Virus record (IMG/VR): IMGVR_UViG_2579778660_000001
Origin: a virus
Lineage: Duplodnaviria > Heunggongvirae > Uroviricota > Caudoviricetes
DNA length: 64,000 nt
Strand: one strand, 5' to 3'
Positions within the stretch are counted from its first letter, which is position 1. Each line of letters begins with the position of its first letter. Below the pieces are notes generated by a model that worked only from the letters and a program-made list of their open reading frames with translations, did not search any database and was not told the origin of the DNA. The translations under genes were made by a program, and so were the position numbers. Of this stretch, positions 27,984 to 64,000 are shown piece after piece.

Positions 27984-28559
27984 ATGTTAATGGCGAACGA
28001 TAACGCATATGCAGAAGAAGATCTCATTTTGAGTGACTTCATAGGGAAGCAGGAACGCTGGACCCAAAAGCGAGAGGAACTTTACGCCTCATTAGTTCGC
28101 AAAGGCGTCAATATCGAAACCGCACAGAGCGGCGATATGACAGTGGTAAGCGTTGGATTGCACGGTGTAAGCGTGTCAGCAATCAATCATGAGCCATACG
28201 TTGCGTTATCCGAGTCAATGGTAAGGTTAGTTAAGTTCCTGAAGTACACAGAAGCGAATAATGTAATCATTGGCAAAAAGAATATCCCTTTTTCCTCGGC
28301 TTTTTACTGGATGATGAAAGGGCTTGATGCCAGGCGGACATCATGGCCTAAAGGGAGCTATATATCGATGTTCCGTGGCAGCATTGGCAGCAAAGAAAAG
28401 CTCTTCGAATTCTTGCCGGAAGAGGCATTCGATATTGTGGAAGGGTGCGATGTGATGGTGATGCCTCGCCTGGTAATGATGAATGGTGATTTACAGGCGC
28501 AGACAGACTGGTTTGCAACTGGTGTGGATATTATCGCGACTGACTGGGAGGCTTTCTGA
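27984..28559 (+). CDS. hypothetical protein, 191 aa
   Basis: AAAAGGAGA RBS; long ORF. Confidence 0.5.
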   Translation: MLMANDNAYAEEDLILSDFIGKQERWTQKREELYASLVRKGVNIETAQSGDMTVVSVGLHGVSVSAINHEPYVALSESMVRLVKFLKYTEANNVIIGKKNIPFSSAFYWMMKGLDARRTSWPKGSYISMFRGSIGSKEKLFEFLPEEAFDIVEGCDVMVMPRLVMMNGDLQAQTDWFATGVDIIATDWEAF

Positions 28560-29059: not shown

Positions 29060-29452
29060 ATGGAACAAATCAGCAGCGCAGAAATTGCGGATATCATGAT
29101 TAGGGCTGACTGCTATCTGACAGTCACTGAAATTACCATTCTCGCCAAAGAAAAATACCCTCATCTCCATGTTTCACGGGTAAGTGTAACTAACATCATT
29201 CGTCATTTTGTTCGTTCAAGCAGGGCAATCTGTGAGCTTGATGATCGCGTTTACCCACGAAAATACTGGTTGCATGGCCTGAACGGATATCAGTTCAAGG
29301 TGCGTGGGCGAACCCCTGAATACGGCAGTTTACTGGTTAAAAACTGTAGCAGGAAATCAGTCGAACAGGCGCGAAAAGAGCAACGAGAGCTGGTGGACAT
29401 GGCGAATAAGCTGTGGAATGCCGCCGTTAAAAAGCGTGGTGTTGCTTTATGA
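29060..29452 (+). CDS. hypothetical basic protein, possibly a late-promoter activator (Lpa-like position)
   Basis: Immediately 5' of pacA and overlapping its start; functional call by position only. Confidence 0.3.
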   Translation: MEQISSAEIADIMIRADCYLTVTEITILAKEKYPHLHVSRVSVTNIIRHFVRSSRAICELDDRVYPRKYWLHGLNGYQFKVRGRTPEYGSLLVKNCSRKSVEQARKEQRELVDMANKLWNAAVKKRGVAL

Positions 29453-30813
29453 GTCTGGTTAATTGGGAGGAGCACCGCGCCCGCTTTATAGCGTTGCGTG
29501 AAGAAAAAGGGATCACTGTAAAGGAATACTGTGAGGAGCATGGCCTTAGCTTCAATACAGCCAGAAAGCATCTCAATATGAAAAAAAATGAGGTGCGGTC
29601 GCAGGTAAAGACAACAAAAAAAAGCACCAAATCACCTGAAAAAAAACGGGCAGGAAGAGCAACAAAAAAGCAGGAAGAGGGTGCAGGAAAAACAAAATTT
29701 ACAGAAATTGACAATTCGCAGGGCGCAGGTTCTTTCCGAAGTATGCCGAGAAAGAAAACTTCGGATCATGAAAATAATTCAAATAATAACAATGAGATAA
29801 AAGAATCCGTCAGGAGATCATTACGCGAAAAAATGGCGAAAATGATCCCCGAAGAAGATAAAAGCGCCCCAAAAATTGAGGGATCTTCTGCAATGATCCC
29901 TGACGGTGCTGTGCAGCGTGCCACATTGCCAACTACGAATGTAGCTCGCGATATGATGAAGAACGGCGCAGAAGAACACCTGCGGTTAGCAATTCAAATG
30001 GCGCAAGAGCGCGCACTTCAGTATCAAAGCATTGTTGATCAGGAGGCCGAACGTCTACAGGCGGAAATAGACACCCTGGGCGATAAAGAGCCAGAAGGAA
30101 TGCACCCTGGGCAGCGCCTTCTCGGTCTAATCAGTGACGCGGCCTACTACATGAATGATTTTATCAGTAGGTTGGCAGCTATTTATCAGTCCGAACAAAA
30201 GCTGCGACAGGGGGATGAAAAGCTTCGTCAGAGCGCTCGCCAGCAAGCATTCAAAGAGGCTGAGGCCAGAGAAAAACTCGAATTAGCACGCCTACAGGCC
30301 GAACAGCGTGGCAAAGAGATTGAATATCGCATTGGCGCTGACGCACGCGCAGCCAGAGTTATCGCCGCCGCTATACGTATGCGTGAGCGCGAGGAACTGG
30401 ATGATATCGGTGTTGCTGAATACATCGAGCGCCAGGGTGTCAGCGTCCCGGCTATCCTCGCGGCGCGCGCGGCGAAAGCTATCACTCTTCTCGAACCACC
30501 TGTTTCTGACGTCAATGATGTTGATGATGAACAGCTGGACAAAGAGGCAAGGGAGTTTGCAACGCTTCAGGCTAACCATCCGCAATGGCTGGCAGAGCGC
30601 CGGGCGGATGTGGCAACCATTGTTGAAGAATTGGGGTGCGGAGATTACGACCGCAATGGCGAGCGTAAAGCTGGAGAATTCGAGGCCAACGACGAAGAGC
30701 TGGATATTGACCCTTCGGCAACGGCTGAAATTTACGGTGATTATGATGCATCTGATGCAGGGTATGACGCCGGAGATGATGATATCGCGATAGAACCGCC
30801 GGAGGATGATTAA
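29449..30813 (+). CDS. pacA: terminase small subunit / pac-recognition protein (PacA-like), 454 aa
   Basis: ATGA overlap with the upstream gene; basic N-terminal region and highly acidic C-terminus; directly precedes the terminase ATPase; GATC-rich segment inside the gene. Confidence 0.6.
   Translation: MSLVNWEEHRARFIALREEKGITVKEYCEEHGLSFNTARKHLNMKKNEVRSQVKTTKKSTKSPEKKRAGRATKKQEEGAGKTKFTEIDNSQGAGSFRSMPRKKTSDHENNSNNNNEIKESVRRSLREKMAKMIPEEDKSAPKIEGSSAMIPDGAVQRATLPTTNVARDMMKNGAEEHLRLAIQMAQERALQYQSIVDQEAERLQAEIDTLGDKEPEGMHPGQRLLGLISDAAYYMNDFISRLAAIYQSEQKLRQGDEKLRQSARQQAFKEAEAREKLELARLQAEQRGKEIEYRIGADARAARVIAAAIRMREREELDDIGVAEYIERQGVSVPAILAARAAKAITLLEPPVSDVNDVDDEQLDKEAREFATLQANHPQWLAERRADVATIVEELGCGDYDRNGERKAGEFEANDEELDIDPSATAEIYGDYDASDAGYDAGDDDIAIEPPEDD
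29760..29900 (+). promoter_or_regulatory. candidate pac cleavage region (GATC cluster)
   Basis: Five GATC sites (29764, 29816, 29844, 29882, 29895) within about 135 bp inside pacA, as hexamers of the form NGATCN; P1 pac is a Dam-methylated hexamer cluster inside pacA. Confidence 0.35.
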
Positions 30814-32321
30814 TGGCTGGCAGGCGCAAGGTTAAATGCGTCACCAGAGATCCACGCTGGCGCGATATGGTAATCAAATACCGCTACAACTTTACCCAGG
30901 CTGTTGTCGATATTTTTGGGATGTTCCCCTCCCACCAGCAGCAGCAGATCATTCAGTCCGTACAGGAAACGGGGAGTAGGACTACCGTCACGTCCGGACA
31001 CGGAACGGGGAAGTCGTCCCTTACCGCGATGTTGCTGTTGATTTTTATGATCCTGTTCCCCGATGCCCGTGTCATCATTGTTGCTAACAAGATAGGCCAG
31101 GTAAAAACAGGCGTATTCAAATACGTTAAACAGTATTGGGCGAATGCAGTTAAGCGTCATGGGTGGTTGCAGACCTATTTTGTCCTCTCTGACACCATGT
31201 TTTATGAGCGCTCCCGTAAGGGGATTTGGGAAGTTCTCTGCAAAGGTTATCGACTCGGCAACGAAGAAGCGCTGGCGGGGGAACACGCGGCACATTTGCT
31301 TCTAATTCTGGATGAAGCATCTGGTATATCTGATAAGGCGATCGGCGTAATGACCGGTGCTCTTACTGAAGAAGATAACCGGATGTTGATGCTATCCCAG
31401 CCAACAAGGCCAAGTGGTTATTTCTACGATTCGCACCATTCTCGAGCAAAAACCCCAGACAACCCGAAAGGGATCTGGACAGCAATTGTTCTTAACTCGG
31501 AAGAATCACCGTTCGTCACACCACAATTCATCAAGGAGAAGCTTCTGGAATATGGCGGGCGCGATTCTATTGAGTACATGGTCAAGGTGCTTGGTCAGTT
31601 CCCACGAGAAATTAACGGCTATTTGCTTGGTCGTGATGAATGCGATCGCGCTGCTCGCCGCAAGGTGTTGTTGGAGAAAAACTGGGGATGGGTGGCAACG
31701 GCTGACGTTGGTAATGGGCGAGATAAGTCGGTCCTCAACATCTGCAAGGTATCAGGTCACAGGGATAAGCGGCGCGTTGTTAACTTTAAGGTAATGGAGA
31801 TGCCTGGCACTATGGACCCATTGGCCTTTGCTGACTTCATATATAACGAATGTACGCCGGAAAAATACCCGAATATAACAATCGCGGTTGATGCTGATGG
31901 TTTTGGTTCTGATACGTGTGCGCAGTTGGTGCGTCGTGGTGCGAACCCGGTACGTATTCGGTGGGGAAAACCCATGTTTGCGAACAAAGACAGGGAGCGA
32001 TTTGTTAATCAGCGAGCCTACGCAAATATTATGGCGCGTGATGCCATAAAGTCAGGGCGTATGCGGATAGACAGTGACTCTAAAACGGCAGAGCAAGCGT
32101 CAAAAATCCCCTTTTTACTGAATGAAGAAGGGAAAATGGCGATGATGCGCAAAGAGCACATGCGGCAAAAGCTAAACATCAAATCGCCTGACCGATGGGA
32201 TACCTACTGCTTCACTATGCTGGTGGACTATGTGCCTGCTAATGAAGATATTGGTGCCGAAATGGCAACTTTCCGAGATCAGGTTCTGGCGGATATCGAA
32301 ATGCCGGATCTGGATATATAA
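30813..32321 (+). CDS. pacB: terminase large subunit (PacB-like), 502 aa
   Basis: Walker A GHGTGKSS and Walker B LLLILDEASG; TAATG overlap with pacA; size close to P1 PacB. Confidence 0.75.
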   Translation: MAGRRKVKCVTRDPRWRDMVIKYRYNFTQAVVDIFGMFPSHQQQQIIQSVQETGSRTTVTSGHGTGKSSLTAMLLLIFMILFPDARVIIVANKIGQVKTGVFKYVKQYWANAVKRHGWLQTYFVLSDTMFYERSRKGIWEVLCKGYRLGNEEALAGEHAAHLLLILDEASGISDKAIGVMTGALTEEDNRMLMLSQPTRPSGYFYDSHHSRAKTPDNPKGIWTAIVLNSEESPFVTPQFIKEKLLEYGGRDSIEYMVKVLGQFPREINGYLLGRDECDRAARRKVLLEKNWGWVATADVGNGRDKSVLNICKVSGHRDKRRVVNFKVMEMPGTMDPLAFADFIYNECTPEKYPNITIAVDADGFGSDTCAQLVRRGANPVRIRWGKPMFANKDRERFVNQRAYANIMARDAIKSGRMRIDSDSKTAEQASKIPFLLNEEGKMAMMRKEHMRQKLNIKSPDRWDTYCFTMLVDYVPANEDIGAEMATFRDQVLADIEMPDLDI

Positions 32322-32323
32322 AA

Positions 32324-32340
32324 GCCCCGCAGTGCGGGGC
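32324..32340. terminator. bidirectional terminator-like hairpin (gccccgc-agt-gcggggc) between convergent genes
   Basis: Perfect 7-bp GC stem; weak T run. Confidence 0.4.
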
Positions 32341-32349
32341 CGGTGGTGA

Positions 32350-33387
32350 TTACCAGAGCTTTGCGGCGCGCTGCGTTTGGGGGAATGTGTATCCGTAACG
32401 TTCTTCGATTGCTTTGCCGTATTTTTTACGCGCTTCATTCAGTTTGATGCCGGTCAGGTCGTCTCCAGAGGCCATCATTACGTCTAACAATTCCAGATCC
32501 ATTTTATCCAGCCTTGCCATTGCTTCACGCGATGTACGAATCTTACGTTCAATGATATGGCGAATAGCCGGATCGGCATCCTCCAGCATCTTAGCTGATT
32601 TCTGCTTAAGGTTTTCGTTGCGGATATCGATGTTCCTTAAGATATACGACTTCGCAACGTAGCTTGGCTGATGTTTTTCCAGGTCACGAACACGATATAA
32701 GCTAAAGTCGCCGAGAAGGCTGCAAGGCACCGATTCGACGCCAGAATAAATTGTAATGCTACGGCGTTCACCAACATTATTGACAACGGGGATCGTTGTC
32801 TTCGGTAGTTTTGCGAAAACGAATGCGCCATGTGCGCCAACTCTAAAGCGAGAAAGGGCATTGCTGCCTTCGATGTTTGTTGTCAGCACAACATCTGTAT
32901 ATGCCTCTTTACGCGCCCGGTAGACCTCGCCTTCAGGCTCAGCTTCAAAGAAGCGCTGTTCTTCTTCAAGAGCACCTACGATTTGAGAAAAAACCCTATT
33001 TTTCAGGCTTTTCTTTATGATTTTGTCGTATTTTTTGAGCAATTGTTCACGTGTAAATGTACGTGTTGTTGTAGCGCTTTGCACAACAACATGCGTGCTT
33101 TGATTGGTGTCCTCAATGATGAATGGGATCGGAGAATATACAGACTCAACAATGTTAGACGCTTTGCCGTCAGCATTACGGCACAAGTCAACAAAGGCTT
33201 TCCATTCTGCGAGGCACTTTTCAGCTTCTTCTAGTACATTTTGGTCGTGTGTTAGTGCAACGTGGCGGAATTCCTCGCCAGCATAACTGGTATCATGGAA
33301 AACAGAGTTTGCGACCACCAGCTCTTTCCACCGTTCAGCGGTTTGCAGGAACCGTTTGTACTCTTTCTCGATCGACTTCTTACTCAT
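32350..33387 (-). CDS. candidate C1-type immunity repressor by position (c1 slot between pacB and the rox-dre unit), 345 aa
   Basis: Position matches c1 in the P1-family pac-c1-lox arrangement; an operator-like motif lies in its own upstream region; no motif-level identification possible. Confidence 0.4.
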   Translation of the reverse strand: MSKKSIEKEYKRFLQTAERWKELVVANSVFHDTSYAGEEFRHVALTHDQNVLEEAEKCLAEWKAFVDLCRNADGKASNIVESVYSPIPFIIEDTNQSTHVVVQSATTTRTFTREQLLKKYDKIIKKSLKNRVFSQIVGALEEEQRFFEAEPEGEVYRARKEAYTDVVLTTNIEGSNALSRFRVGAHGAFVFAKLPKTTIPVVNNVGERRSITIYSGVESVPCSLLGDFSLYRVRDLEKHQPSYVAKSYILRNIDIRNENLKQKSAKMLEDADPAIRHIIERKIRTSREAMARLDKMDLELLDVMMASGDDLTGIKLNEARKKYGKAIEERYGYTFPQTQRAAKLW

Positions 33388-33600: not shown

Positions 33601-33634
33601 TAACTTTAAATAATGGGGATTATTTAAAGTTAGG
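33601..33634 (+). other. rox-type (lox-like) site-specific recombination site
   Basis: TAACTTTAAATAAT-GGGG-ATTATTTAAAGTTA: 14-bp perfect inverted arms around a 4-bp spacer. The arms match the rox site of the Dre recombinase as I recall it (spacer GCCA there), and share ATAACTT...ATA with loxP arms. Confidence 0.8.
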
Positions 33635-33784: not shown

Positions 33785-34813
33785 ATGGGAGAATTAATTA
33801 TCTCTGGCAGTTCCGGTGGTTTTCTGCGCAACATTGGCAAAGAGTACCAGGAAGCCGCAGAAAACTTTATGCGGTTCATGAATGACCAGGGGGCTTATGC
33901 GCCGAATACTCTGCGCGACCTCCGGTTGGTGTTTCATTCCTGGGCGCGCTGGTGTCACGCTCGCCAGCTCGCCTGGTTCCCGATCTCACCAGAAATGGCC
34001 CGCGAGTATTTTCTTCAGCTGCATGATGCCGATCTGGCTTCGACCACCATTGATAAGCACTACGCCATGCTGAACATGCTGCTTTCGCATTGTGGCCTTC
34101 CGCCACTTTCGGATGATAAAAGTGTTTCTCTGGCTATGCGGCGCATCCGGCGCGAAGCGGCAACTGAAAAAGGCGAACGAACAGGCCAGGCTATACCGCT
34201 GCGGTGGGACGATCTGAAACTGCTCGACGTCCTGTTGTCCAGGTCAGAACGGCTGGTGGACCTGCGCAACCGGGCTTTTCTCTTTGTTGCATACAATACG
34301 CTGATGCGTATGTCGGAAATCTCGCGTATTCGTGTAGGAGATCTGGACCAAACAGGTGACACTGTCACGCTACATATTTCACACACGAAGACAATAACGA
34401 CCGCCGCCGGGCTTGATAAGGTGCTTTCCCGTCGCACTACCGCTGTGCTGAATGACTGGCTGGATGTTTCCGGGCTTCGCGAACATCGTGACGCAGTGCT
34501 GTTCCCGCCGATACACCGTAGCAATAAGGCCAGGATCACGACAACGCCCCTTACTGCACCTGCAATGGAGAAAATATTCAGCGACGCCTGGGTGTTGCTG
34601 AATAAAAGAGATGCTACGCCAAACAAAGGGAGATACCGGACGTGGACCGGGCATAGTGCACGCGTCGGGGCCGCTATTGATATGGCTGAAAAGCAGGTGT
34701 CTATGGTGGAGATCATGCAGGAAGGAACCTGGAAGAAACCGGAAACACTTATGCGGTATCTGCGCCGTGGCGGTGTGTCTGTGGGGGCTAATAGCCGCCT
34801 GATGGATTCGTAA
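33785..34813 (+). CDS. dre: Dre-like tyrosine site-specific recombinase (Cre homologue), 342 aa
   Basis: Extended colinearity with P1 Cre (WARWC..WFP, LNMLLS..GLP..SD..VSLAMRRIRRE, AYNTLMRMSEISRIRV, GHSARVGAA..MA, W...LMRYLR), catalytic R/H-x-x-R/W/Y in place; rox-type site 150 bp upstream. Confidence 0.9.
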   Translation: MGELIISGSSGGFLRNIGKEYQEAAENFMRFMNDQGAYAPNTLRDLRLVFHSWARWCHARQLAWFPISPEMAREYFLQLHDADLASTTIDKHYAMLNMLLSHCGLPPLSDDKSVSLAMRRIRREAATEKGERTGQAIPLRWDDLKLLDVLLSRSERLVDLRNRAFLFVAYNTLMRMSEISRIRVGDLDQTGDTVTLHISHTKTITTAAGLDKVLSRRTTAVLNDWLDVSGLREHRDAVLFPPIHRSNKARITTTPLTAPAMEKIFSDAWVLLNKRDATPNKGRYRTWTGHSARVGAAIDMAEKQVSMVEIMQEGTWKKPETLMRYLRRGGVSVGANSRLMDS

Positions 34814-39867: not shown

Positions 39868-40789
39868 GGCCCGCCTCATGCTTTTCAGCCACCAGCGGCA
39901 ATAAAGCCCTGGCCATCTTATGAACCAATAGTGCATCAATAATGCCAAGCGTATGCCCCGGCTTAATGTTTAATGCCGCCTCAAGGTGACACCTTTCCAG
40001 GCCACTTTTCTCGGCTTGTTTATGATGATCTGGTGTAATAACGTCGCCCAAAACACGGCTAATTCTTTCTCGTAATTGCTGGGTGCCAGCACACTTGATC
40101 GCTGTATCGTGGAGACGGTTAACCAGTTCGCGATAAACATGCGGCTTAATTCGGATACGTTCACCGGTGACGCCCTTTCCTGGCGCTGGCACCGAACTAT
40201 CCGGAATATCCGGATAGTTGCCAGCCTCGTAAGCTACCCGCAGCCAGTGCATGAATGTTTCAGTGGACACACAACCACAGTCCACATCGATTTTCCCGCG
40301 TTGCTGTTCCAGCCATTGCCCAAAATCCAACCTGTAAGTCTTACTTTCAAGTTCATCACCATTGAACTCGACTTTCTGCGACGCTATGAGAGCTGATTCG
40401 TATTGTTCGCGAGTGACAACTGACTGGTATTCATCGCTATCAAGGTCACCAATTGGAAGCTCAATCTCACAACAAAAATTGCGCCCAAAGAAAGTGTCTT
40501 TTTTGTGGTCTGAGCCAAAAGCAAAAGTCGCGCATGGTGCCATTAAATTGACACTGGGTAGGTAACAATAACTCATTCCATCAGGCCACCCGCCGCACTT
40601 AGGCAGCTCCTTCACTAACAAGTCGATAAGCTTCATTTTTTTATCATCTTTGCAAGCCGCCAAAGCCATTTGGGCAAGTGCCAATACTTCATCTGCCGTA
40701 TATCCAGCACCGTGACCATACATTTCGATACGGGAAATAATCTCTGATATACGCTCTTCAGTGATTCTGGTCATTTCTTTTTGCGCCAT
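39851..40789 (-). CDS. hypothetical protein, 312 aa
   Basis: Shares the ...YRELVN.L.D.A...GT.QLRER... segment with the C-terminus of the DUF4406-like protein (49930-50541). Confidence 0.5.
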   Translation of the reverse strand: MAQKEMTRITEERISEIISRIEMYGHGAGYTADEVLALAQMALAACKDDKKMKLIDLLVKELPKCGGWPDGMSYCYLPSVNLMAPCATFAFGSDHKKDTFFGRNFCCEIELPIGDLDSDEYQSVVTREQYESALIASQKVEFNGDELESKTYRLDFGQWLEQQRGKIDVDCGCVSTETFMHWLRVAYEAGNYPDIPDSSVPAPGKGVTGERIRIKPHVYRELVNRLHDTAIKCAGTQQLRERISRVLGDVITPDHHKQAEKSGLERCHLEAALNIKPGHTLGIIDALLVHKMARALLPLVAEKHEAGHANES

Positions 40790-41145
40790 TTCTTTTCACA
40801 TTCCTTAGTCCATTTTTCAATGTTCATTTTGGCAATATCAGTCATTCCATCACCTAAGAAATACTTTCTCCGGTATGTCTTGCACTTAAACCACACTACA
40901 ACAGCCACCAGCCAGAAAATAAAAGGCCATACAGCAATACCAACGACAGCCGCGATAAAGCCCAATATCCATAAATGAAGCTCTCCAACTTCTGTTTCCG
41001 GCAATATTCTTAAAGAATTAAACAGCAGGCTGAACGAATGGTCGTATGCATTGGCAGTATAAGACATGCAATCCATATAATTAAAGTCATAGCCTGCGGC
41101 TGCCGCCCATAATGGGCGGTCAAGAAAATGTTTTAGTGTCATCAT
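40771..41145 (-). CDS. membrane protein, 124 aa
   Basis: Two hydrophobic helices and a basic C-terminus. Confidence 0.45.
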   Translation of the reverse strand: MMTLKHFLDRPLWAAAAGYDFNYMDCMSYTANAYDHSFSLLFNSLRILPETEVGELHLWILGFIAAVVGIAVWPFIFWLVAVVVWFKCKTYRRKYFLGDGMTDIAKMNIEKWTKECEKKWRKKK

Positions 41146-41151
41146 ATTAAT

Positions 41152-41541
41152 TTAAGGTTCAGACCAGTTATCTTCAATAGCAATGCTTAATCTTTGTAGC
41201 CATTCTGCTAATTTCAGCATTGCTTCTCTTTCGCTTAAACCACGAGGAAAATCATCAAGCGATATTGTTGGCTTGAAGCCCCCGTAATTATCCATTTCAA
41301 CGGTCAGATTTTGCTCCAGTACGGTATTCCTTACGCGGCTATTGTGGCGAAGCAAATATACTGAACGTGATTTATTGGTTTTGTGGTCGAGCTGATGTTC
41401 GGTAAGTATCATCTGGCTTTTGCCATGACTATTACCTCTCCACATACTTACCTCACTTAATAAAACAACTCCATACGTAGTTGATGATTTTTTCCCACGT
41501 AATATAAATCTGCACTCCGGCAGTAAAACCAAAGCCAACAA
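41152..41541 (-). CDS. hypothetical protein (start may be internal)
   Basis: ORF in the operon; no motif. Confidence 0.35.
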   Translation of the reverse strand: MLALVLLPECRFILRGKKSSTTYGVVLLSEVSMWRGNSHGKSQMILTEHQLDHKTNKSRSVYLLRHNSRVRNTVLEQNLTVEMDNYGGFKPTISLDDFPRGLSEREAMLKLAEWLQRLSIAIEDNWSEP

Positions 41542-41623
41542 TTGCTGAAAAAATCAAAACATTTACTTTTGACATTATAAATTTTCTCTCGGTGTCGTAG
41601 GTGATAGCACCATAATTGATAAT

Positions 41624-41875
41624 TTAGTGAGTTAGCAGTTCCATTTTTTGGATGATTTCCGCATGAGCATCATCGTTATCAACACTTAACTCGTTTAATG
41701 CCTCTCGCACCACATCAACTTCTTCTGGTTGGAAGAAATCATCTCGGTAGTCACCAAATAGAACCGAAACAAGCCTGCCACCAGCAACATCAAGATTGGC
41801 GCTAACAGGTGGCTCTTTACCATCCTCAAATTCGACTACAAAAGTTATTTTTCCCATCGTTACCACCAGCGACAA
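41624..41875 (-). CDS. hypothetical small acidic protein
   Basis: Operon context. Confidence 0.35.
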   Translation of the reverse strand: MSLVVTMGKITFVVEFEDGKEPPVSANLDVAGGRLVSVLFGDYRDDFFQPEEVDVVREALNELSVDNDDAHAEIIQKMELLTH

Positions 41876-41939
41876 ATTGAATACAAACCCAGTGCTGCCG
41901 CCATCACAATTCCTACCGTGGTGAATGCTTCAGGCCAGC

Positions 41940-42782
41940 TCATTGATTCACCTCCTGCGGCGGTTCTGGTAGCGGCATCCAGTGGGTTACCTCTTTGAGA
42001 TGCAGGTCTTCGCCGTCGCCGTCATCCCACGTTGGATTGCCATCATCAAACCAGTCGCCATATACGCCAACCTGAGTGTTTGGTATGTTGGGCCAATAGT
42101 TATTTTTGAAATCAGCAGCTAATACATAGCGCTGCTTTTCACCCATTTCCGGCATCCGCTCGCTTACCGGAATCCATTTACCCGGCACGGTAGCGGGTTC
42201 ACTGCCGGGTAGTTGCGGCGCGGCTGCGAGCATGGCCTCGGTTTCCGCAATCAGGTTGTGAGGTAGTTGGCATCCTGCATTTTGCATGCCGTGGCCAAAT
42301 GCCAGCCAGCGCCGAAGCATGTCCGCTGAACCATCCGGAATTACCGGAGAGTTGCCAGCCAGCGCGTTCAACTTGTAAGCCTGGCTTACAGGTTCGGCAC
42401 TATGAAGCATGGCAGCTCGGCAGGCGTTCCAGCCAGATGTTCGCCCAAGCGCGTAAACTTCAGATGGCTCAAGATAATCAATGTCATGCCCGTCCTCATC
42501 GTCGTTCTCAGGTAATGCAGCAGGTACTACCGGTACTGGCGGGGCGGCATAAACAGGAATAACGTCCGATTGCTCTTTATTGCTTTCATCCGTTAAAGCC
42601 CAGAATAATTTTCCAGCCGGATGTTTGAAAATATAAGCAACTGGTTCTGCTTCCAGCGATGCCAGAGCAATTCGTGCCAGTTCTTCCGCTTCTTCTGCTG
42701 GCAGTACAACGTTGCTACCAGGTCCGTATGTTTCGCGCCACTGCTTGATTGTCAGCAGTCGCTCTTTGGTAATAGTGGTCAT
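41940..42782 (-). CDS. DUF551-like phage protein, 280 aa
   Basis: C-terminal ...THWMPLPEPP, the characteristic DUF551 ending (recalled). Confidence 0.45.
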   Translation of the reverse strand: MTTITKERLLTIKQWRETYGPGSNVVLPAEEAEELARIALASLEAEPVAYIFKHPAGKLFWALTDESNKEQSDVIPVYAAPPVPVVPAALPENDDEDGHDIDYLEPSEVYALGRTSGWNACRAAMLHSAEPVSQAYKLNALAGNSPVIPDGSADMLRRWLAFGHGMQNAGCQLPHNLIAETEAMLAAAPQLPGSEPATVPGKWIPVSERMPEMGEKQRYVLAADFKNNYWPNIPNTQVGVYGDWFDDGNPTWDDGDGEDLHLKEVTHWMPLPEPPQEVNQ

Positions 42783-43120
42783 TTGTTAATCCTCAAAACT
42801 TTATGCCCGGGCGCAAAAGCACGCGTTTTGTCTTTGCTTATTCGCCAGCCATCCTTGCGCGCCTCTTTTGCACAGCCAGCCCATGACGTACCTATATACT
42901 CACCGAAGTCTGGCGACTTATATTTGCCATCTGTACACTGGAGGCAGTCACAATAGAGATGCATGGTGTAACTTGCGGCAATAGCCATATCACTCTCCTT
43001 TAGTGCGCAAATGGTTTTTTCCAGCGGTTTTGCGCCGCGCTGGGCTTTTTGCAAAAACCACAATCCATCATCCCGTAATATTTCATCAACCCCATCCGTC
43101 GGTTGCTGAGTCTCACCCAC
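42779..43120 (-). CDS. hypothetical Cys-rich protein (alternative: two coupled small genes, with the distal one starting at the internal ATG after AAGGAGAGTGAT)
   Basis: GTG start without RBS; an internal copy of the junction motif TAAAGGAGAGTGATATGG suggests the real gene is the 69-aa C-terminal part (MAIAASYTMHLYCDCLQC...). Confidence 0.35.
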   Translation of the reverse strand: MGETQQPTDGVDEILRDDGLWFLQKAQRGAKPLEKTICALKESDMAIAASYTMHLYCDCLQCTDGKYKSPDFGEYIGTSWAGCAKEARKDGWRISKDKTRAFAPGHKVLRINK

Positions 43121-43351
43121 TGCCAGACGCCAGGAGCGTTTCTACGAACTAACAGAATCTTTGCTTTACGGTTTTTCATCGCTTTGCTCTCCTGCGTCTC
43201 TTTGCTGCTCGTCGTGCCGCTGCAATACCGGTATGGCGGCGCTTTGGTGCCGGGATGATGTTGTCAGCCATCAGGACATGTGGCTTTGCAATTAGCGCAG
43301 AAGCCCAAAAACGAGTCGGGTACGGTAACAAGCCGATACATGCCACACGCA

Positions 43352-43609
43352 TTACTCACCTCCTTTAATGCGAATGCCAGCGGCGCGGATGGCGTCAGCG
43401 CAATAATCGATAGCGCAGTTGTGTCCTTTGCCGAAATCATCCTCAGCCATCACTTTGTCATCGAGTTTTATCTCGATAGCTGCGCGAGATGCCTGCCATG
43501 CCCTCCATGCCATTTCCGTGGATGAATAAACATACCCGCAATCACCATATACAAGGCTTAAATTTTGCTTTTTCGCGAACTCCAAAAACTGCTTTCTTGA
43601 TTCGTCCAT
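43352..43609 (-). CDS. hypothetical protein, 85 aa, ending ...GIRIKGGE
   Basis: Start re-assigned to MDESRKQ (ATG 2 nt after the upstream stop, RBS GGAGAG embedded in the upstream C-terminal codons). Confidence 0.45.
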   Translation of the reverse strand: MDESRKQFLEFAKKQNLSLVYGDCGYVYSSTEMAWRAWQASRAAIEIKLDDKVMAEDDFGKGHNCAIDYCADAIRAAGIRIKGGE

Positions 43610-43610
43610 A

Positions 43611-44513
43611 TCACTCTCCTTTGATGCGAATACCAGCAAGCCAGTTTCTTATGCCGATATATTCAGCATTCCTGAAACCGCTTTTTACATATATAAATGG
43701 CAAGCGAAGATTGTGACCATTGGCTGCCAGGTAGTCTTTACAACCCTGTTCGGTGAAACAGCAGGTAACGAATTCATCAATATCTTTCACAGCAACGCGC
43801 CGCCATTTTTCTGGTGGCTCTCGAAAGTTTTCGTGAAGTAGTTCGAGACGACGACTTTGGCGTTTATTGGCTTCATTGCCATCTTCATCAACCCAGACAA
43901 TCCGGTCATAGTCATAATCAGCATCAACAACGATTTCGCGCTTTTGATACACACAAAACATAGGGTCTGACGTTATTCGATTATCCTGTGTTCGAATATT
44001 TTCACCGATGATGCCAAACGAATCTGGTGCAGATTTTGTCTGCAACTCTTCGATACGTTCAGCCATCGCAGCACACTCTTCAAAGTTGCTTAATGCTTTT
44101 CGCTCCGATTCAGCGCATTGTTTTTCCAGTTCTGCTATGCGCTTACCTCCATCCGCGATTACTCCCTCGTAATGCTCGCGCTGCTCGTTGAGTTTTGATT
44201 TTGCCGACTCCAGTTGTTTTGTTAGTTCCACAATACGGCAAACATCGTTGATACGCGTTTCCTCTAATGCGTTGATCTCATCCAGTAGTGCCAGTGCAAC
44301 TTTTGGTGGGATAGCCGCGATATAACGGGCATTGGCACTAGCGTTCCTCTGTCCATCAATGCCAGGCCAGTCAATAAAGTATCCGCAATGCCTACCCTCA
44401 GACGTGCGCGCAGGATAAATGCCGTTATGTCCCGGCAAAATATATGCTACCCATTCATCTTGCGTTGCCTGCTCCGCTGCCTCGCGCAACTCCTGATAGT
44501 TAGTTTCACTCAC
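43611..44513 (-). CDS. Ead/Ea22-like protein, 300 aa, ending ...GIRIKGE
   Basis: N-terminus MSETNYQELREAAEQ and coiled coil paralogous to 48635-49120; the C-terminal IKGE codons carry the RBS for the next gene. Confidence 0.5.
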   Translation of the reverse strand: MSETNYQELREAAEQATQDEWVAYILPGHNGIYPARTSEGRHCGYFIDWPGIDGQRNASANARYIAAIPPKVALALLDEINALEETRINDVCRIVELTKQLESAKSKLNEQREHYEGVIADGGKRIAELEKQCAESERKALSNFEECAAMAERIEELQTKSAPDSFGIIGENIRTQDNRITSDPMFCVYQKREIVVDADYDYDRIVWVDEDGNEANKRQSRRLELLHENFREPPEKWRRVAVKDIDEFVTCCFTEQGCKDYLAANGHNLRLPFIYVKSGFRNAEYIGIRNWLAGIRIKGE

Positions 44514-61241: not shown

Positions 61242-62147
61242 ATGAGATCAGTCGCTTTCAAAAATATCTTCATCTATCGTCTTTCACGCGAAGTTAACTG
61301 GGATACCGCAGAAGTAAATGCAGCCCTTAGCAAGTTTGTGTTTACCCCATGCGGTTCTCAGGATATGGCTAAAGCTGGTTGGACCCCAATTCTTGGCGAC
61401 AACCTCACCCATGAATACCAGGGTTTTCTTCTGATGCAGCATAAACGAGAGGAAAAAATCCTGCCTTCTCAAGTACTCAAAGAAGAGTTACAGAAAAAAA
61501 TCCTGAAACTTGAAGAAGAGCAAGACAGAAAGCTGAAGAAGACCGAAAAAGATTCGCTGAAGGATGAAGTGCTTCACTCTCTTCTTCCTCGCGCTTTCAC
61601 GAGAAAATCAGTCGCTAAAATCCTGATAGACCGAAGCAATCATCTGGTTTTTGTCGAGGCCAGCAGTGCTAAAAAAGCAGAGGATCAGCTGGCTTTGTTA
61701 CGGAAATCGCTTGGCAGCTTGCCCGTTGTCCCCTTCTCTCCGAAAGACCCATTAGAACTGACCATCACTGGCTGGATTAAAGATGGCTTCCCGAACGGTT
61801 TCCGTGCTGGTGAGGAAGCGACTTTAAAAGCATTGCTTGATGATGGCGGCGCGGTCCGCTGCAAAAAAGTGGACCTGCTATCCGACGAGATCATGAGTCA
61901 TATAGAAGCTGGTAAGGTTGCAACCACAGTTGCGGTTAACTGGCAAGACCGTGCATTTTTCAGACTGAATGACGATATGAGTATCAAGGCTTTGTCGTTC
62001 AGCGACGAATTGTACGACCAAAACGACGATATTGATCGAGAGGATGTAGCGCAACGATTTGACGCTGACTTTATCCTGTTTACTGCTGAATTATCAGCCA
62101 TGTTCACTTCGCTAGTGGAGGCCGTTGGTGGTGAAGCAGAACGTTAA
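61242..62147 (+). CDS. rdgC: RdgC recombination-associated protein
   Basis: Long colinear match to E. coli RdgC as recalled ([74 protein letters not shown]). Confidence 0.85.
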
Positions 62148-64000
62148 CCTTAGATATGGTTCTGTTTGCAGTGGAATTGAAGCAGCGAGCATTGCCTGGG
62201 AACCGTTGGGTATGCGTCCGGCGTGGTTTGCTGAAATCGAGCCTTTTCCATCTGCCGTTCTTGCGCACCGCTGGCCCCATGTCGCCAACCTTGGCGATAT
62301 GACAAAACTTGCCAAAAAAGTCCTGGCTGGGGAAATCGAATCCCCTGATGTGCTCGTCGGGGGAACACCTTGTCAGGCATTCAGTATCGCGGGATTACGT
62401 GGTGGGCTTGATGATGAGCGTGGCGCGCTAACTTTAAAGTATGTGGAGCTTGCAAATGCAATTGACGACAAACGGGCTGAGTCATTTCTCAAACCAGCCG
62501 TTATCGTCTGGGAAAATGTCCCAGGAGTCTTGTCATCGGCAGATAACGCCTTCGGATGTTTCCTTGCCGGATTGGCTGGAGAAGATGCGCCATTCGAACC
62601 AGGTGCTCGACCTGAATCACGAAAAAGTAACGCGTTCTGGCGGTGGGATGTCAAAACCAGTTGCCATGCTCCAAAGTGGCCGCAGTGTGGTTGTATTTAT
62701 GGACCGCAGCGAAAAGTGGCCTGGAGAATCCTTGATGCCCAATACTTCGGAGTGGCACAACGACGCCGACGCGTGTTTGTTGTCGCAAGTGCTCGAACAG
62801 ACCTCGATCCCGCAACGATACTTTTTGAGTTCGAAGGCGTGCGCCGGAATATTGCGCCGAGCCGAAAAAAGAAGGAAATCGCTTCCGCCATTATTGCAAA
62901 TGGCGCTGCAATCAGTGGCGAAAGTCTAAATCCATGCCTACACGCTGACATGCCCCCCGGTATGAAATCGACGAAAGCCGTAAACGCTTTCAGGATGGCG
63001 GCATTTGGGGAATATATTGACGATGAAACCGCATCGACAGTAAAGGCAAGAGACTTTAAAGATGCCACTGACCTTGCCGTTTTTAGCAGCACAGGAGCAG
63101 GTTTTTGGTCAGAGGGGCATGGTACATTGCGGGCGCGTGAGCAAGAAAGCCATGAGCATCTTGTTACATTAGCTTTTCCTGAGCATATGAGCGGTACACA
63201 ACATGCTGCAACTAAGAATACTTCACCATCTCTAATGGCTCAAAATCCAACAGCCGTTTGCTATGAAGCAAGAAACGCAAAAGTAGCTGTTCGCCGTCTT
63301 ACCCCTGTCGAATGTGAAAGGCTGCAAGGTTTTCCTGATGGGCATACGTTGATCCCTACGGAAAAGCGTAAAACAATTTCCTCAGATGAACTGGCATACC
63401 TTCGCAATCACTATCCAGATTTAAGCGAAGAAGAGGCCGCGATGCTCGCTGCTGACGGGCCGCGTTACAAAGCGATTGGCAACAGCATGGCAGTTCCTGT
63501 TATGCAATGGATTGGGTGTTGCATTCTTGCGACTGTGGAAGCTAAACAGCCAAAAACAATAAATACCATTACCTACACAAGAATACTCCGGACTCCGGAT
63601 GAATATGAGCGTCCGATCTTCAAATGGGTAGGAGGTAAATTCTCAGAGTTACCTACAGTGCTTGAGCATCTACCACACGGCAAGCGGTTAATAGAACCAT
63701 TCGTTGGTGGCGGTTCCGTATTTACGAATGCAGGATTTCGCCACAACCTGCTTAATGATATTAACGGTGACCTGATTAACTTCTATCAGACATTGCAGCG
63801 AGAAGGACATTCGCTCGTCACGCTGTCATATAGTTTTTTCCAAAATTACAACAACGCTGACGCTTACCTCGAAGTGCGTGAGGCATTTAACAGAGGAAAG
63901 TATGACCAGCTACATCATGCTGCCGCCTTTTTGTACCTTAATCGGCACTGTTTTAATGGCGTAACGCGGTACAACCAAAATGGCGAGTTCAACGTGGGGT
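62128..64000 (+). CDS. dmt: fused DNA methyltransferase (Dmt-like): C5-cytosine MTase domain followed by Dam-type N6-adenine MTase domain; 3' partial, runs off the window
   Basis: Continuous frame with no stop from 62116 to the end. C5-MTase motifs in order: VCSGIEAAS (I), [12 protein letters not shown] (IV), [10 protein letters not shown] (VI), [10 protein letters not shown] (VIII), [18 protein letters not shown] (IX), [10 protein letters not shown] (X); then Dam motifs [10 protein letters not shown] and EPFVGGGSV. Start likely GTG 62128 (GGAGG 6 nt upstream), overlapping the rdgC end. Absent from the ORF track because there is no stop inside the window. Confidence 0.75.

Follow-up and report, generated by a model that had tools for sequence, protein, structure and literature searches.

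The 64,000-nucleotide stretch of DNA analyzed here (the window) is a phage D6-like plasmid prophage, whose pacA-pacB genes are 98.8% identical at the nucleotide level to the annotated pacA and pacB of Escherichia phage D6. The first gene of the locus, lpa (29060-29452, plus strand), codes for a late promoter activator, as indicated by the D6 annotation and a match to the Pfam family BPP1_LPA (PF25716, E = 4e-56). Its stop codon overlaps the start codon of pacA (ATGA), unlike in P1, where an 85-bp gap carries the late promoter LPpac. The overlap leaves no space for a P1-like LPpac, and a late promoter is thus absent ahead of the D6-like pacA. pacA (29449-30813, plus strand) encodes the small terminase, or pacase A subunit, of 454 residues, and its stop codon overlaps the start of pacB (30813-32321, plus strand), directly downstream, which encodes the large terminase, or pacase B subunit, of 502 residues. 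A GC-rich, terminator-like stem-loop (32323-32341) lies between pacB and the convergent gene for a c1-like prophage repressor (32350-33387, minus strand), assigned from the D6 annotation and from a PF27008 match on the identical gene in other contigs. Farther downstream are a rox recombination site (33601-33632, plus strand), which matches the rox arms exactly and, compared with D6 rox, has a variant spacer (GGGG), and dre (33785-34813, plus strand), coding for a Cre-like tyrosine recombinase (D6 annotation, PF00589 match).

Identification of the terminase subunits is supported by several comparisons. Besides the identity of its gene to D6 pacA, PacA matches the PHROG 1711 terminase family (E = 1.6e-184) and is colinear with P1 PacA over its full length (21% identity, E = 2e-11). 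Its layout is that of a P1-type pacase, i.e., an N-terminal helix-turn-helix (HTH), a variable linker, and an acidic C terminus. A three-helix HTH DNA-binding domain is predicted (29464-29574, plus strand) from a weak Pfam HTH_23 match at residues 7 to 42 and from a single-sequence AlphaFold model of the N terminus, with helices at residues 6-19, 24-31, and 35-42 (pLDDT 83-88). The top matches of a fold search with this model were all HTH domains, none of them significant (E of at least 0.25). The third helix, FNTARKHL (residues 35-42, approximately 29551-29574, plus strand), is the putative recognition helix. PacB has 55.7% amino acid identity to P1 PacB and matches the terminase large subunits of PHROG 2 (E = 2.6e-40). 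It harbors a Walker A-like motif, SGHGTGKS (residues 61-68, 30993-31016), and a Walker B motif, LLLILDEAS (residues 162-170, 31296-31322), both invariant in nine PacB sequences. The first-pass annotation had called both motifs canonical, which slightly overstates the case for Walker A, as its Gx3GKS form fails the strict [AG]x4GK[ST] pattern. A Pfam search of PacA and PacB gave only subthreshold matches, including Terminase_6N for PacB, and a PDB sequence search found no relatives.

A fused Dam-type methyltransferase had also been described at the window end, and we indeed found there an open reading frame (about 62143-64000, plus strand, running off the window) with a C5-cytosine methylase domain (PF00145, 3.8e-37) followed by an N6-adenine methyltransferase domain of the D12/Dam class (PF02086, 1.7e-29). 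The Dmt protein of P1 similarly has a C5 domain and a Dam-class domain within a single ORF, and sequence comparison identifies the window gene as an orthologue of P1 dmt. The Dam domain is 98.6% identical to that of D6 and 68% identical to that of P1 Dmt, and the C5 part has 96% DNA identity to the dmt genes of P1-family phages; the very different similarities of the two domains to P1 indicate a mosaic gene. A Dam-family methyltransferase is also annotated in a distant Pantoea phage-plasmid.

Within pacA, five GATC sites start at 29764, 29816, 29844, 29882, and 29895 and hence span 135 bp (29764-29898), with spacings of 52, 28, 38, and 13 bp. The cluster reported initially is therefore real, and it is the tightest five-site group in the window, which holds 215 GATC sites in total (3.36/kb) and has four sites per 150 bp nowhere else. 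The probability of finding any five GATCs within 135 bp somewhere in 64 kb was 0.18 with uniform placement, 0.25 with an order-1 Markov model, and 0.11 with an order-3 model, compared with P = 0.004 for anywhere in the 1365-bp pacA and P = 1e-4 for a prespecified 135-bp window. The density thus exceeds background within pacA but is not significant window-wide, and the case for a pac site was accordingly not based on density statistics. The hexamer contexts of sites 1 to 5 are cGGATCAt, gAGATCAt, aTGATCCc, gGGATCTt, and aTGATCCc. Their proposed resemblance to the TGATC(A/G) hexamers of P1 holds in part: all contain GATC and 4/5 contain TGATC on one strand, but none of the five matches TGATC(A/G) on either strand, the prevailing type being TGATCC. 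A promoter and terminator scan found neither overlapping the cluster.

Conservation and the analogy with P1 delimit a candidate pac region (29690-29910) composed of a conserved spacer block and the five GATC elements. The block, AATTTACAGAAATTGACAA (29693-29714), contains a TGACAA invariant in 25 distinct sequences. In the relative L118, whose identity is 57%, it is located between left and right hexamer arms, which makes it one candidate for where cleavage or bending takes place. Element 1, GGATCAT (29763-29769, minus strand, on which it reads ATGATCC), is kept in all 27 distinct D6-clade sequences and is absent in L118. Element 2, GGAGATCATT (29813-29822, minus strand), forms an inverted repeat (I2, 90% complementary) with element 3, AATGATCCCC (29841-29850, plus strand), each being kept in 26/27 sequences. 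The motif of element 3, GCGAAAATGATC, is common to the right arm of most PacA lineages, with AAATGATC found in 22 of 32. Element 5, AATGATCCCTGA (29892-29903, plus strand), is a direct repeat (D1) of element 3, 51 bp downstream, and forms an inverted repeat (I7, AGGGATC/GATCCCT) with element 4, AGGGATC (29879-29885, minus strand); both are kept in 27/27 sequences.

An IHF-like box, TAACAATGAGATA (29787-29799, plus strand), is a weak candidate, identical at 10 of 13 positions to the annotated IHF site of P1 pac, AAACAAAGAGTTA. It has two mismatches to WATCAANNNNTTR, and the window holds about 10 matches that good per kb. As IHF consensus scans of 29560-29930 yielded only such two-mismatch matches, at background frequency, an IHF site is not claimed. 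The P1 cleavage region, TTGTCAGTGCCGCAG, has a short resemblance to positions 29705-29718, TTGACAATTCGCAG, but conservation does not extend to other lineages, and we regard it as a lead only. Public contig ends, used as a proxy for physical DNA ends, gave one case. The IMG/VR contig L144 begins exactly after the GATC of element 1; with some 15 contig ends in the fetched flanks, one end in a 135-bp target is expected, as a rough estimate, about 20% of the time. Contigs with identical PacB have no ends within the cluster.

We analyzed conservation in the D6 clade using 27 distinct pacA sequences, with PacA identities down to 67%. Three of the GATC sites are retained in 27/27 and two in 26/27 of these sequences, whereas invariant tetramers make up only 11.6% of the segment. 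The sites occur in all three codon phases (0, 1, 2, 1, and 2), and the degenerate third-codon positions that they contain are all invariant (5/5), compared with 32% of third positions across the segment. Element 4 is preserved even across a Gly-to-Arg codon replacement. This pattern of substitution indicates that the candidate pac GATCs are constrained as DNA and not through the peptide that they encode. A repeated peptide, MIP, is encoded at elements 3 and 5, so part of their conservation could be at the protein level.

The comparison was extended to 32 PacA lineages, defined as 90% clusters from plasmids, GTDB genomes, and IMG/VR. Their GATC density is 19.1/kb at pacA offsets 130-470, against 4.2/kb outside, a 4.5-fold enrichment, and each of the 32 lineages has at least three GATC sites in that interval, even though the proteins are only about 30% identical. 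The more distant, Vibrio-type relatives retain two GATC arms. Almost all lineages, L118 among them, have an ancestral left arm of hexamers that is missing from the D6 lineage, where its loss is accompanied by a 12-nt indel; elements 1 and 4, in turn, are extra sites specific to that lineage. The P1-like phage-plasmids of Pantoea, Serratia, Xenorhabdus, Citrobacter, Leclercia, and Enterobacter are like D6 in gene order and in the pacA segment concerned, and they share with it the right-arm motif GC(C/G)AAAA(A/T)GATC. Those lineages have a left arm of three to seven TGATCA hexamers with a spacing of about 12 bp, encoding (x-x-Asp-His) repeats, and one to four right-arm sites 100 to 200 bp from it. 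Many lineages other than D6, a number of these phage-plasmids included, carry an extra array of TGATCA hexamers 50 to 140 bp upstream of pacA, in the promoter region. The D6 lineage has neither the left arm nor the upstream array.

The hexamer flanks are lineage-specific as well. The D6 lineage has 80% TGATCC/GGATCA, and the other 27 lineages have 83% TGATCA/TGATCG; in the pac region, TGATCC flanks reach 80 to 88%, against a background of about 20%. The hexamer type covaries with the predicted recognition helix of PacA, which reads RK[HK]L in 6/6 TGATCC lineages and RR[EYQHN][LF] in 26/26 TGATC(A/G) lineages.

The P1 pac site described by Sternberg and Coulby reportedly occupies 161 to 162 bp inside pacA, in the order HEX4, IHF/cleavage, HEX3. 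In terms of pacA offsets, its GATCs are found at 194-228 and 324-375, the annotated IHF site at 255-267, and cleavage at 275-285. The D6 cluster occupies offsets 315-446. Like P1 pac, it lies in the variable linker that directly follows the HTH domain, and in the protein alignment it falls on the P1 right arm and the stretch immediately downstream. In both phages, then, GATC elements lie in the 5′ third of pacA, past the HTH domain, the cognate PacA and PacB genes are adjacent, a Dam-class methyltransferase is phage encoded, and a lox-type site with a Cre-type recombinase (here rox and dre) follows a few kilobases downstream in the same orientation, 3.8 kb from the GATC cluster to rox and 4.0 kb from P1 pac to lox. 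The two elements differ in other respects. P1 pac has seven or eight sites in two arms (4 + 3) separated by a spacer of about 90 bp, and the D6-like element has five sites in 135 bp, with neither a periodic left arm nor such a spacer; its hexamers are of the asymmetric TGATCC/GGATCA type, partly in inverted pairs, instead of TGATC(A/G), and its IHF box is only weakly recognizable. In P1, both hexamer arms are needed for efficient cleavage, and the missing left arm speaks against a pac site here, as do the lack of P1-type hexamers and of a convincing IHF site. A pac site embedded in the gene for its recognizing protein, as in the D6-like pacA, is also found in gene 3 of P22 and gene 1 of SPP1; those sites do not consist of GATC arrays, the sequences of their terminases are unrelated, and we know of no Dam-methylation gating for them.

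Altogether, the segment at about 29690-29910 inside pacA is probably the pac site of the D6-like phage-plasmid, where headful packaging starts. Position, conservation, and the family-wide comparison all support the Dam-linked, P1-type reading put forward in the first-pass annotation. The element is very probably a rearranged relative of P1 pac rather than a copy of it. A relative of the well-studied P1 pac is to be expected here, with some differences peculiar to the lineage. By analogy with P1, which is our basis for proposing cleavage and its position, PacA binding, methylation dependence, and packaging direction, PacA would bind the GATC elements through its N-terminal HTH domain, the targets being the five heptamers of the TGATCC/GGATCAT type, two of them paired as inverted repeats. 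PacA and PacB, probably with a host DNA-bending protein, would then cut near these elements on replicating concatemers. Cutting would be permitted only when the GATCs are fully Dam methylated, so that host Dam and phage Dmt would time cleavage. Packaging would run the same way as pacA transcription, past pacB and c1 to rox, and the terminal redundancy of the first headful would include rox, enabling Dre to circularize that headful.

An alternative that we consider unlikely is that the GATC elements are regulatory sites responsive to PacA or to Dam and SeqA, used to autoregulate or time the expression of pacA-pacB or to sequester hemimethylated DNA, and that packaging starts at a different sequence. 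The TGATCA arrays upstream of pacA in many lineages place PacA-type hexamers where regulation is plausible, the D6-lineage pacA, which overlaps lpa without a late promoter of its own, would need another timing device, and the two-arm geometry of P1 is missing. Against this, the homologous hexamers of P1 are the experimentally defined pac site (PMC10028697), and the D6 elements lie within the gene and not at a promoter, with nothing promoter-like overlapping them. Regulation and packaging are in any case compatible, as the P1 sites do both. It is very unlikely that the cluster is merely the right arm left over from a P1-type pac that has decayed, the D6 lineage packaging inefficiently or with relaxed specificity, here or elsewhere. 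The left arm present in L118 and almost every lineage did disappear from the D6 lineage together with the 12-nt indel, but D6-type elements are abundant: this pacA is present on 141 plasmid records, and the elements are near-identical across many Escherichia coli, Salmonella, and Shigella plasmids. Phage D6 itself was isolated and propagated (record host, E. coli C600). The five remaining sites are strongly constrained, which, together with the additional D6-specific sites 1 and 4, has the look of compensation and not of decay. Lastly, a chance or coding by-product devoid of DNA-level function would fit the window-wide probabilities (0.11 to 0.25) and a linker of low complexity whose Asp-His (GAT-CAT) and Met-Ile (ATG-ATC) codon pairs generate GATC, but it is highly improbable, being strongly disfavored by the invariance of the GATCs in three phases while flanks and amino acids change, by their enrichment across 32 such divergent lineages, and by the lineage-specific hexamer flanks.

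With the cluster taken as a pac site, the lineage comparison suggests a tentative scenario, which we hold somewhat short of an even chance. The D6 clade may have respecified its packaging signal from TGATC(A/G) to TGATCC, with Lys replacing Arg in the recognition helix of PacA, after which the D6 lineage proper would have lost the periodic left arm, leaving a compact, one-sided set of five elements, partly in inverted pairs. In the open full-text literature we found neither a description of a D6 pac site nor a family-wide survey, although an earlier description may exist. Neither GenBank record of D6 annotates pac; as the P7 and phiW39 records of the same authors also lack it, this absence is uninformative.

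If the signal was indeed respecified, the D6 and P1 pacases would be orthogonal, without cross-packaging, and the family would represent a graded natural series in which a methylation-gated site coevolves with its terminase. D6-like phage-plasmids are frequent in E. coli, Salmonella, and Shigella, and the DNA that is packaged first, and with it the DNA that is transduced, depends on the position and orientation of pac. Phagemid delivery and PAC cloning rely heavily on P1 pac and its pacase, and a related, probably orthogonal pac/pacase pair beside Dre/rox, itself already orthogonal, could serve as another packaging system independent of the first. How packaging is currently understood does not change, a known mechanism being extended to a diverged relative. 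To our knowledge, Dam-methylation gating of terminase cleavage has been studied only in P1, and the turnover of GATC arms, the hexamer switch, and the upstream arrays provide a comparative handle on it.

The segment at 29449-32321 shares 98.8% DNA identity with the pacA-pacB region of Escherichia phage D6, represented by a 7.6-kb immC record (AY753669) and by the complete genome (MF356679), and the gene order lpa, pacA, pacB, c1 (on the opposite strand), rox and dre is common to both. Given this match and the D6-like neighbourhood, the element is a plasmid prophage of the D6 type, distantly related to P1. In both D6 records, pac, the packaging start site, is unannotated. pacA (29449-30813) encodes a 454-aa protein and pacB (30813-32321) a protein of 502 aa. 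PacB was said in the first-pass annotation to have canonical Walker motifs; SGHGTGKS (aa 61-68) and LLLILDEAS (aa 162-170) are present, and unchanged in all nine PacB sequences, but the P-loop SGHGTGKS departs from the strict pattern [AG]x4GK[ST]. The stop codon of lpa and the start codon of pacA overlap as ATGA (29449-29452). Therefore, pacA and pacB appear to share a transcript with lpa, an early gene under repressor control, and to lack the separate late promoter of P1: in P1 a late promoter precedes pacA, whereas the overlap in the D6 lineage leaves no room for one. Elsewhere in the window, 27984-28559 (+) codes for a 191-aa ORF with a Thoeris anti-defence Tad2-like domain (PF11195, E = 1.7e-9), whose plasmid homologues are labelled 'MW1434 family type I TA system toxin' in RefSeq.

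Five GATC sites start at 29764, 29816, 29844, 29882 and 29895 in pacA, exactly where the first-pass annotation had placed a GATC cluster. They belong to elements 1 to 5, at 29763-29769, 29813-29822, 29841-29850, 29879-29885 and 29892-29903, respectively. The window contains 215 GATC sites (3.36/kb), and the cluster is the tightest among them, as well as the only place with four GATC in 150 bp. An equally tight cluster is expected somewhere in the 64 kb in 18% of uniform placements, and in 25% and 11% of order-1 and order-3 Markov sequences, respectively; if the hypothesis is limited beforehand to pacA, because P1 pac sits there, P = 0.004. The excess over background is thus borderline, holding within pacA and not window-wide (P of 11-25%), and the case must therefore rest on comparison. 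The 4.2 kb at 40098-44273 contain no GATC for ~14 expected (window-wide P ~2e-4). This region harbors small accessory genes (DUF551, Ead/Ea22-like), which it shares with P1-family phages at 96-98% identity; further matches to the region are found in many Stx-converting and other enterobacterial phages.

For the comparison, loci were gathered with PacB as bait from GTDB genomes and IMG/VR, and plasmid loci were added. With a 90% identity cut, 32 PacA lineages were obtained, whose sources include Escherichia, Pantoea, Serratia, Xenorhabdus, Citrobacter, Leclercia, Enterobacter and Rosenbergiella; they were registered on a conserved Trp codon of pacA. Over the 32 lineages, GATC density was 48/kb at +150 to +200, 20/kb at +200 to +250 and 11-24/kb at +300 to +450, versus about 4/kb elsewhere. 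Overall, it amounted to 19.1/kb within +130 to +470 and 4.2/kb outside, with at least three sites within this interval in every lineage. The usual arrangement consists of a left arm of 3-7 hexamers with ~12-bp spacing, translated as x-x-Asp-His repeats, and, 100-200 bp beyond it, a right arm with 1-4 hexamers; two arms are also retained in more distant Vibrio-type relatives. The right arm often starts with GC(C/G)AAAA(A/T)GATC, a motif also found as element 3 of the window (GCGAAAATGATC), and AAATGATC is present in 22 of the lineages. Many lineages other than those of D6 and P1 (L016-L019, L025, L135, L138, L141, L142, L008, L012, L150, L153, L156, L157, L159 and L013) have a third, intergenic array upstream of pacA, composed of 2-5 TGATCA-type hexamers spaced by ~12-30 bp, ~20-140 bp upstream of the Trp anchor, with a GATC density peak of 25.6/kb at -100 to -50. 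This array may be a Dam- or PacA-controlled promoter. It is absent from the window, where lpa overlaps pacA.

The pac site of P1 is described in textbooks; phage D6 is also known, as are its pacA and pacB genes. Full-text searches of the open literature returned no description of a D6-type pac site, although one may have appeared elsewhere. In P1, seven TGATCA/G hexamers (HEX4 and HEX3) surround an IHF site and the cut, and cleavage is controlled by methylation (PMC10028697, a study in which GATCs of P1 were eliminated by synonymous changes). The layout of pacA in the P1 record agrees with this description. Its annotations place the IHF site at 255-267 and the cleavage positions at 275-285, between GATCs at offsets 194, 201, 213 and 228 on the left and at offsets 324, 336, 347 and 375 on the right; all of these GATCs fit (A/G/T)TGATC(A/G). 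D6-type and P1 PacA are only 21% identical, yet they are colinear end to end, and both start with a conserved W-x-x-H ... NTAR helix-turn-helix (HTH) region. A basic linker of variable sequence comes next, and it is here that the GATCs of both genes fall. In the protein alignment, the D6 cluster is at and just downstream of the P1 right arm, and the P1 left arm is opposite a GATC-free D6 stretch. The elements might instead represent a regulatory site, with packaging starting elsewhere, a reading to which the additional arrays that other lineages have upstream of pacA lend some support; we consider it unlikely, as experiments have established the homologous sites of P1 as pac.

The sites had been likened in the first-pass annotation to the TGATC(A/G) hexamers of P1, but the cluster contains none. 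TGATCC/GGATCA makes up 80% of the pac-region GATCs of the D6 lineage, compared with 21% in the background, and neither TGATCA nor TGATCG occurs among them. TGATCC accounts for 88% of the pac-region GATCs in L118 (IMGVR_UViG_3300009011_000012), whose PacA is 57% identical, and a 39%-identical relative, L121, is likewise of the TGATCC type; in the other 27 lineages, 83% are TGATCA/TGATCG and 6% TGATCC. The D6 sites are asymmetric heptamers, oriented as GGATCAT at elements 1, 2 and 4 and in the opposite direction, ATGATCC, at elements 3 and 5, which makes 2/3 and 4/5 inverted pairs, and the set includes a direct repeat, AATGATCCCYGA, whose copies are 51 bp apart. L118 has retained a left arm in the form of three GGATCA sites, whereas this position is devoid of GATC sites in the D6 lineage; the two also differ by a 12-nt indel directly after the HTH domain. 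Relative to L118, elements 1 and 4 were gained in the D6 lineage, whose sites form a compact, one-sided group of 135 bp.

Within the HTH, the third predicted helix contains ...RK(H/K)L in 6/6 TGATCC-type lineages and ...RR(E/Y/Q/H/N)(L/F) in 26/26 TGATC(A/G)-type lineages. A single-sequence model places the helices at aa 6-19, 24-31 and 35-42 (pLDDT 83-88), and its fold matches are HTH domains throughout, none of them significant. The co-variation of helix and hexamer is consistent with a changed DNA specificity, but it is only a lead because it represents phylogenetically a single event.

To assess conservation within the D6 clade, 27 distinct pacA genes were taken from plasmids and IMG/VR, the most diverged of which encode PacA proteins of 67% identity. 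The segment surrounding the cluster has 11.6% invariant tetramers and 32% invariant third codon positions; GATC is kept at elements 1, 4 and 5 in all 27 sequences and at elements 2 and 3 in 26. The five sites are in codon phases 0, 1, 2, 1 and 2, and the degenerate third positions within them are all invariant, while synonymous positions just outside vary. At element 4, GATC survives a Gly-to-Arg replacement (GGA to AGA). A further GATC beyond the cluster, at 30037, is kept in only 20 of the 27 sequences. As judged from these alignments, selection at the cluster acts on the DNA and not on the peptide. Such strong constraint, together with the abundance of D6-type elements, makes it quite improbable that the cluster is a decayed remnant of pac. 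Pure chance or a by-product of coding is more improbable still, being contradicted by the phase-independent conservation of GATC and by the lineage-specific hexamer flanks. Two D6-like IMG/VR contigs, L147 and L163, have each lost one pac-region GATC by a T-to-C change (GACC), at element 2 and element 3, respectively. These variants could be natural tests of site redundancy, or may reflect sequencing errors.

Position, DNA-level constraint, recurrence in the family and orthology of the parts were thus observed for the candidate pac region (~29690-29910). By homology with P1, PacA would most likely bind the GATC elements, and PacA and PacB would cut nearby, probably solely on fully methylated DNA; headful packaging would then proceed toward pacB, c1 and rox. 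One candidate cleavage zone is the AT-rich stretch between elements 1 and 2, containing TAACAATGAGATA (29787-29799), which is identical to the P1 IHF site at 10 of 13 positions, yet matches the consensus weakly. Another is a conserved block at 29693-29714, which is located between the two arms in L118 and lies ~50 bp upstream of the first element, i.e., at the P1 cut-to-HEX3 distance. Base 1 of the public contig L144 (IMGVR_UViG_2537562191_000021) corresponds to position 29768 of the window, exactly after the GATC of element 1 and inside the candidate pac. This contig start could be a physical end or a coincidence, with a chance of ~20% as a rough estimate from roughly 15 contig ends in the fetched flanks.

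The rox site (33601-33632) is 3.8 kb downstream of the cluster in the reading direction of pacA; the P1 equivalent, from the cut to lox, measures 4.0 kb and has the same orientation. P1 packaging starts at pac and moves toward lox, which places lox in the redundancy of the first headful, and the conserved pac-rox geometry suggests that D6 shares this logic. The rox site of the window has the arms of D6 rox and the 4-bp spacer GGGG, not TGGC, and the fetched relatives have TGGC, GGGG or TAGC as the spacer, along with several versions of the arms. They are natural rox variants and may be heterospecific.

The fused Dam-type methyltransferase reported at the window end was recovered as a single ORF starting at about 62143 and running off the window, in which a C5-methylase domain precedes one of the Dam class (D12). 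The latter is 98.6% identical to that of D6, and its best non-D6 matches are all P1-family dmt genes. This dmt orthologue (62143-64000, +) looks mosaic, its C5 part being close to the P1 family (96% DNA identity to dmt of phages RCS47 and Ro157c2YLVW) and its Dam part 68% identical to P1 Dmt at the protein level. A large Dam-family enzyme is likewise encoded by a distant Pantoea phage-plasmid (NZ_CP134736.1), on which an annotated rdgC gene (82851-83759) is found close upstream of the methyltransferase gene, separated from it by a single small gene. The synteny resembles that of the window, where a 301-aa ORF (61242-62147, +) immediately precedes dmt and corresponds to rdgC in position.

As far as can be established, the D6-type site is a variant on the known P1-type pac, with the same place, logic and partners, but its hexamer and arrangement differ and one arm has been lost. 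Orthology with P1 suggests a link between the methyltransferase and packaging, and the Dam enzyme of the host would also be able to methylate these GATC sites. Post-transcriptional timing, for instance by methylation gating, would be especially useful where pacA has no late promoter of its own.
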